This document shows positions 53,901 to 54,618 of a DNA stretch of 64,000 nt, in pieces (within the stretch, counting starts at the first letter, position 1; each line of letters opens with the position of its first letter). Under the pieces are notes generated by a model that was not told the origin of the DNA, did no database searches, and saw only the letters and a program-made list of their open reading frames with translations. A program made the translations under genes and the position numbers. Source of the stretch: Eledone cirrhosa (lineage: Eukaryota); assembly GCA_964016885.1 (NCBI GenBank), contig OZ024740.1, positions 380,866,001-380,930,000 on the forward strand, written 5' to 3'.

Positions 53901-54613
53901 TTAAGATAAGCAGAACAAGTAAAATTCAATCAATTTTTCAAAATACATTAAAAAATATAATATAAATATTTACCTCTCCTAGTGGCCCTTACTGATCAGT
54001 TTCGCTTTGTAAAACCTCATAAATCCGATGGATTTATGATGGAAAACCAAAGCTCATCATTGAACAACCTTGAATCATAGACAACCTATGTATTTCTAGG
54101 GGTACCTAGTATCCCTGGACATATTAACTTCTACCTTTTTCTCCGTCCGTTGAGAACAATCCTGTTGCTCTACTTGGCTGCTATTTTTTTAGTAGTAATT
54201 GTAGACAGCAAGTCTTTGATTTTCCCGCTTTTACTTCGGTCCAGTTTACATACGGGTCAATTTTACGACCTTTCAGACCTTTATTAGCTGGCAGGAGGTT
54301 GTATATTTTGTCGTTCCTGGGACGTTTAGCCCTAGGAAGGGAAAATGCTTCTCTGATGAGCTTTGGTTTTCCATCATAAATCCATCGGATTTATGAGGTT
54401 TTACAAAGCGAAACTGATCAGTAAGGGCCACTAGGAGAGGTAAATATTTATATTATATTTTTTAATGTATTTTGAAAAATTGATTGAATTTTACTTGTTC
54501 TGCTTATCTTAATATTAAAGTTCTGGTGTATCAAATTAACACCATTGAACAACCTTGAATCATAGACAACCTATGTATTTCTAGGGGTACCTAGTATCCC
54601 TGGACATATTAAC

Positions 54614-54618
<5 letters not shown>
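53901..54618 (+). mobile_element. Retrozyme-like element: inverted 5' segment, then a 485-nt monomer with 76-nt terminal redundancy
   Basis: 54058-54133 = 54543-54618; 53901-54059 is the reverse complement of 54354-54512; one HHR; (TA)n flanks. Confidence 0.85.
54349..54427 (+). ncRNA. Type I hammerhead, intact core
   Basis: ttct-CUGAUGA-gctttg...tcataaatcc atc ggatttatga...caaagc-GAAAC UGAUCA GUA-aggg. Confidence 0.9.

Follow-up and report, generated by a model that had tools for sequence, protein, structure and literature searches.

Tandem repeats of type I hammerhead ribozymes that form circular RNAs have been described from coral, mussel and axolotl (PMC7229834). A 2026 preprint concludes that retrozymes derive from Penelope pseudo-LTRs and are non-autonomous; their units measure 51–972 bp, and monomer copies are numerous (bioRxiv 10.64898/2026.07.22.740005). 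That circles may serve as templates for copies longer than one unit was proposed in 2014, and the hammerheads of Penelope-like elements were described as dimer-dependent in the same work (PMC4209133). Insertions of Penelope-like elements are characterized by a partial tandem, an inverted 5′ copy, a tail and a bias towards microsatellites (PMC8557442). For Poseidon from anole, the one Penelope-like element tested in vitro, the tail corresponds to the stretch between two internal sites at which reverse transcriptase (RT) starts, and the enzyme cleaves and extends each of the two DNA strands; it acted in vitro mainly on unprocessed RNA, and ribozyme cleavage was dispensable (PMC11167929).

The insert investigated here lies in a stretch of 64,000 nt (the window) and is flanked by (AT)8 on the left (53886–53901), which adjoins the tail end of a neighboring hammerhead element from another family, and by (TA)n on the right (54617–54673), confirming the initial annotation of an insertion into (TA)n. 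It begins with an inverted, 5′-truncated copy of 54354–54515 on the minus strand (53898–54059; 162 of 162 nt identical), the tail-less 3′ end of which abuts the left microsatellite. The inverted and direct arms are joined at a 2-nt microhomology, CA (54058–54059, from the junction comparison), and are followed on the plus strand by the end of a preceding unit (54058–54133), i.e. a tail end that makes the insert a partial tandem, and by one complete 485-nt unit (54134–54618) consisting of a body (54134–54515) and a tail. The exact repeat of 76 nt at an offset of 485 reported in the initial annotation was recovered in full (54058–54133 equals 54543–54618, 76/76 nt), as was the copy of approximately 1.16 units, the direct arm being 561 nt or 1.157 units long. 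The inverted 5′ copy is also real but measures 162 nt instead of the 159 nt first given, where 3 nt common to the left (AT)n had been omitted. None of the 238 duplicated nucleotides differ, bounding the divergence at less than approximately 1.3%, and the copy at 53898–54618 is thus likely recent, as had been suggested. Placed on a tandem of the unit, the arms together cover 750 nt (1.55 units) and leave a gap of 27 nt, a geometry that would fit one template primed twice and two separate RNAs alike.

For comparison with other copies, contigs from four public runs (X1, X2, X4 and X7) were compared with the insert from 54058 onward; 9 of 13 runs, from five studies, matched all or part of the stretch, and the contig evidence covers 26 of 677 pieces and 20 of 79 loose ends. 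None of the 13 runs is recorded as RNA, which speaks neither for nor against expression. On either side, the insert was found to terminate in a 3′ end of the element, the left one equivalent to 54515 and the right one at 54617–54618. One X4 contig has an (AT)n loose end behind 54515, and one X1 contig has such an end behind 54130, equal to 54615, so that the right end is shared with another copy to within 2–3 nt; each key loose end has one or two contigs as support. Summed contig depth, which was not taken as copy number, peaks over 54438–54513 and drops about sixfold across approximately 54514 (from 47,618 to 8,366 in X1 and from 49,103 to 7,384 in X2). The tail is thereby delimited as the approximately 102–103 nt between the two recurrent 3′ ends (54516–54618, plus strand), as marked by the loose (AT)n ends. 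Folding predicts an A+U-rich hairpin a short distance before the 3′ end at 54515 (54432–54502, plus strand) and an 11-bp hairpin inside the tail (54580–54604, plus strand).

Neither copy end coincides with the predicted ribozyme cut at 54423, and among the few copies seen they fall repeatedly on two positions (54515 and approximately 54615–54618) and are not permuted. On these positions, the copy ends do not fit random overshoot around a circle. The 5′ truncation points, on the other hand, differ among copies: in one X2 contig the letters before 54250 were read by eye as reverse-strand helix II, and this loose end is likely a second inverted join with a different truncation point. Recurrent 3′ ends joined to (TA)n and combined with variable 5′ truncation are a signature of target-primed reverse transcription. 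Judged by these ends, the focal insert has the anatomy of a Penelope-like insertion, with a tail at one end and an inverted copy. A template in which the unit is repeated, whether circle or tandem, is required as the initial annotation stated, but its reading of the 76-nt redundancy in itself as the footprint of a circle cannot be upheld, as both outer ends are recurrent 3′ ends of the family and an uncut linear tandem fits equally well.

A second hammerhead family in the window, with cores at 14663 (plus), 52071 (minus) and 53700 (plus), serves as an internal control for the pattern of tail and inverted end as read from the sequence. Its insertion at 51970–53885 comprises a tail-less inverted arm (51970–52136) and a direct arm that carries a tail of approximately 84 nt and extends to approximately 53885, while the insertion at 14561–14781 shows the mirror arrangement of tailed and tail-less ends. 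The likeness among all three core-bearing segments starts 65 nt 5′ of the core. A broken GIY-YIG-like fragment is found at 26612–27008 (Pfam E 0.0012, below the cut-off; Atlas score 0.92); it has no detected sequence in common with the unit, and weakly suggests that coding relatives exist in the genome.

Several further features of the window were observed. The GIY-YIG-like end is surrounded by an 839-nt inverted repeat (25822–28993) and followed by a 232-nt partial tandem with degenerate hammerhead-like cores (27037–27503), and the region 25822–28993 is likely a decayed coding Penelope-like insertion. Two fragments approximately 75% like 54441–54515, each in (TA)n (25593–25667 and 31201–31277), are likely copies from a related family that have undergone heavy truncation. 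A 130-nt repeat at 54695–54826 and 29091–29223 (91% alike), the former adjoining the (TA)n to the right of the insert, is possibly the 3′ end of another microsatellite-targeting element, in which case three elements would be stacked at the focal spot. On the minus strand, a frame of 147 codons with a cysteine-rich motif and no Pfam match (37233–37676) presumably resembles the linker and endonuclease start of Neptune-type elements, and two plus-strand open frames, also without a Pfam match (8882–9445, 187 codons; 10650–11465, 271 codons), resemble what we take to be fragments of non-LTR retrotransposons. Self-comparison additionally revealed long, near-perfect palindromes within 3573–5023, 14346–14460 and 48267–48795, e.g. 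one of 404 nt at 100% (4351–4754).

The 485-nt unit proved to be a genuine repeat family, other copies of which are closed head-to-tail, and this supports the initial annotation. The join at 54133–54134 is bridged by record 17 of X4 (54071–54337; 6 differences) and by record 25 of X7 (54073–54222; 3 differences and 1 gap), which originate from coded organisms B and D, respectively. In addition, a divergent X4 contig (record 20) covers 54478–54617 with 15 differences in 140 nt (approximately 89% identical) and then continues, the loose letters behind 54617 matching 54141–54146 and 54152–54159 in order; the assignment of this loose end to X4 records 20 and 24 was inferred from lengths. In an X1 contig, too, the same 12 letters are found ahead of 54152. 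As the tail is followed by the body in two subfamilies, 54134 does not represent a locus-specific truncation. No piece spanning the whole unit or two ribozymes was present among the 26 of 677 pieces seen, and the joints table of the contig comparison had no entries. With 1.16 units, the focal locus itself holds no two consecutive complete ribozymes.

The unit has a G+C content of approximately 36% and, in agreement with the initial annotation, appears non-coding, no credible protein match being found among the frames scanned. Pfam gave no credible match for all five of the unit frames scanned (of 15 listed), a vMSA match at E 0.18 being dismissed, and the longest unit frame (83 aa) had no Penelope match in a phmmer search against 1.84 billion proteins; its sole match, P0001, a bacterial-type Ig-like repeat protein, summed weak repeats and was taken as chance. 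No RT or GIY-YIG open reading frame was thus detected in the insert among the frames scanned with Pfam and phmmer, and no autonomous partner with these ends was found in the window and the contigs seen. By our own reading of the sequence, no open reading frame starts inside the ribozyme, nearby ATGs reaching stops within approximately 13 codons, and one ATG near the ribozyme is absent in a variant. A metagenome pattern scan returned three loci, all of which were short matches in unrelated coding DNA otherwise unlike the unit. A sigma-70 promoter scan, the model for which is not applicable to animal-like sequence, gave chance levels.

The hammerhead motif (54349–54427, plus strand) was identified from a motif scan and compensatory pairs. 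Scanning both strands of the 64,000-nt window gave four layouts of type I hammerheads. One begins at 54353, with CUGAUGA at 54353–54359, GAAA at 54410–54413 and UA at 54422–54423, and with the cut predicted after 54423. Helix I has 4 bp, two of which are G-U, and helix II has 6 bp plus a 10-bp hairpin, spanning 50 nt. Helix III is a 10-nt palindrome (54413–54422) with a 2-nt loop, for which self-pairing was computed at −13.6 kcal/mol. In the monomer fold, the pairing probabilities of helices I and III do not exceed 0.08 and the monomer is predicted to be unstable; the focal ribozyme is predicted to need a dimer partner. The intact core described previously holds for the sense copy but not for the inverted one, which reads AUGAUGA and is disabled by the loss of C3 together with the 5′ strand of helix I.

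Rfam gave no hammerhead match at the insert, whether the gathering score was applied or E values as high as 10 were admitted, and the ribozyme assignment accordingly stands on motif, pairing and covariation. When 24 proposed pairs were compared to the contig variants (40 of 43 variant rows), 19 were unchanged, two were compensatory (54415/54420 in helix III and 54377/54393 in helix II), two were kept as G-U and one, in helix II of the divergent subfamily, was broken; the placement of the pair variants on one X4 contig was inferred from a common depth value. These compensatory changes make it likely that the hammerhead structure is under selection. Among the variants listed, ten positions in the 71-nt motif and none of the 13 core positions vary, the latter being too weak as evidence alone. 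A separate contig, record 26 of X7, is identical over 67 nt (54398–54464, the 3′ half of the ribozyme) and then diverges, which suggests a ribozyme module common to a family with another 3′ end.

The reading we consider probable is that the insert is a copy of a closed, non-autonomous 485-nt hammerhead unit, inserted by the RT and GIY-YIG endonuclease of a Penelope-like element acting in trans. The unit is likely Penelope-derived, of the non-LTR retrozyme type, and copied in trans from RNA in which the unit is repeated. In the proposed mechanism, the GIY-YIG endonuclease would cut both strands of (TA)n, and each DNA end would prime cDNA synthesis at one of the two internal start sites on the unit-repeated RNA, which would likely stem from a tandem source locus. 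Synthesis from the tail end would extend over 561 nt (1.16 units) and across the ribozyme site, that from the body end over 162 nt, and the two cDNAs would then be joined at the CA microhomology. As the 561-nt cDNA crosses the cut site, the RNA would have been either uncut or re-ligated there; of these, we lean modestly towards an uncut tandem over a ligated circle. The focal copy itself is predicted not to give rise to circles, given its lone intact core and the burial of that core in a 162-bp hairpin of any read-through transcript.

The alternative that survives best, possible though in our view unlikely, differs only in the template, which, as in the model of the initial annotation, would be a covalently closed 485-nt circular RNA; it would be generated through cleavage and ligation by dimeric hammerheads, and a Penelope-like enzyme would read it for more than one round. 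A more specific form, to which we give somewhat less credence, has one circular 485-nt RNA primed at both Penelope start sites, each situated immediately downstream of a conserved hairpin, with copying for more than one round. The closure of the unit in two subfamilies speaks for a circle, as does the formation of circles by the retrozymes of coral, mussel and axolotl (PMC7229834). The unit folded as a circle also reaches −140.2 kcal/mol, compared to −102.6 ± 5.6 for 60 shuffles, none of which was as low (z = −6.7), but this predicted energy shows self-pairing and not circularity. Both arms furthermore carry a G at 54435, as if one stretch had been copied twice. This G is the minority letter across the contigs compared, the other letter accounting for a depth of 8844/9594 in X1 and 15.7/15.7 in X4, and the arms thus appear to derive from the same variant; two RNAs of one source locus or gene conversion would, however, fit the shared G as well as one circle. 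Against a circle stand the unpermuted ends at two fixed sites in the few copies seen, a focal helix I of just 4 bp, the use of unprocessed RNA by the anole Poseidon enzyme in vitro, where ribozyme mutants were without effect (PMC11167929), and the cleavage in vitro of only one of nine predicted Xenopus retrozyme dimers (bioRxiv 10.64898/2026.07.22.740005).

It is less probable still, and altogether doubtful, that the 485 nt instead represent no more than the pseudo-LTR, or the 3′ terminus, of a long Penelope-like element with coding capacity, with 54134 as the point of truncation or deletion in a master copy. In its anatomy, the insert does not differ from insertions of coding Penelope-like elements (PMC8557442), and a 5- to 10-fold increase in depth over the final 75 nt of the body suggests that other families have that end. 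Short contigs also break at branch points, so that a branch bearing an open reading frame could be missed, and in X4 a share of 0.3 of the compared sequence continues in letters unlike the unit, among them a stretch of 140 nt, seen over 30 letters, that lies upstream of 54325. The corresponding shares in X1 and X2 are, in contrast, 0 and 0.01, and the join from tail to body is found both in near-identical and in 89%-identical subfamilies from different coded organisms. A 1-nt insertion behind 54183 was moreover seen in three runs, and the protein searches of the unit frames likewise count against a coding element.

A hammerhead satellite spread by recombination at the DNA level, with the copy made by local duplication and inversion, appears very improbable: local tandem amplification from a Penelope terminal repeat has been proposed (bioRxiv 10.64898/2026.07.22.740005), but both outer ends here are recurrent 3′ ends joined straight to (TA)n with varying 5′ truncations, and the same pattern occurs in the neighboring family. 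That misassembly produced the inverted and direct duplicates is the remotest of these explanations, since, despite the perfect identity of both duplicates and a contig comparison that began at 54058 and left the join itself uncovered, both ends match 3′ ends found independently in other runs and the same anatomy is present in another family in the window.

The preferred reading, insertion in trans of a closed non-autonomous unit by a Penelope-like enzyme, places the focal element within an established class. The class, its Penelope origin and the idea of a circular template are already published (PMC4209133, PMC7229834 and bioRxiv 10.64898/2026.07.22.740005), and the element, going by its sequence, works like a non-autonomous Penelope-like element and is no new kind of element. 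Published support for Penelope enzymes moving animal retrozymes consists of co-occurrence and pseudo-LTR phylogeny. To this, a young, closed, non-coding unit with a tail, two start sites and an inverted join adds a modest amount of evidence from the insertion site. The main text of the preprint is silent on tails or inverted insertion ends (bioRxiv 10.64898/2026.07.22.740005), and a search of largely open-access main texts found no paper describing a tail and inverted ends for a retrozyme-type unit, a tentative indication of novelty. The focal unit is, in addition, a compact substrate with which to find out whether the RNA that is copied is circular or an uncut tandem. Should the template prove circular, the insert would provide direct sequence evidence both for the mobilization of retrozymes by Penelope and for the circle as template, two points that are only proposed in current papers.

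Compared to known systems, the focal unit shares with metazoan non-LTR retrozymes a short non-coding unit with one type I hammerhead and a G+C content below 45%, head-to-tail order, strong predicted self-pairing, dispersed monomer-like copies, and a proposed Penelope origin and mobilization. At 485 nt, it exceeds the range of approximately 150–400 nt given for invertebrate retrozymes in PMC7229834, and lies within the 51–972 bp of the preprint (bioRxiv 10.64898/2026.07.22.740005). In contrast to retrozymes, it is known here from a monomer-type DNA copy and from closure, and not from dimers or circles. Its ribozyme, with a short helix I, a palindromic helix III of the Penelope type and an unusually long helix II, is not a canonical loop-loop retrozyme ribozyme. 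The canonical helix I and II sizes and the contact between loops 1 and 2 on which the strict 2020 definition of retrozymes is based are not found in the focal motif; as the 2026 preprint admits minimal hammerheads, this counts under the stricter definition only. The unit, as judged from its motif, thus falls within the broad definition of a retrozyme and outside the strict one based on a canonical ribozyme. The non-autonomous Chlamys elements, e.g. MRC1 of Chlamydomonas, similarly have pseudo-LTRs and head-to-tail multimers, but they come from a green alga and most are without a canonical hammerhead (PMC8557442).

The endonuclease-positive Penelope/Poseidon and Neptune elements resemble the focal insert in their partial tandems, inverted 5′-truncated copies, tail at one end, microsatellite or A+T-rich targets and hammerhead with a palindromic helix III that needs a dimer. 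They differ in encoding an RT and a GIY-YIG endonuclease, for which no coding sequence was found in the focal unit, and the published tails of Penelope-like elements are 30–40 bp long compared to approximately 102 nt here. The open reading frame of anole Poseidon additionally starts in the ribozyme, and by our own reading the focal unit has none such. In L1 twin priming, an inverted 5′ segment is joined at a microhomology and is not a duplicate of the direct part. The focal insert shares with L1 the inverted 5′ segment and the microhomology join, but its inverted part, unlike that of L1, duplicates the direct part, which would follow from a template that repeats or from the use of two RNAs.
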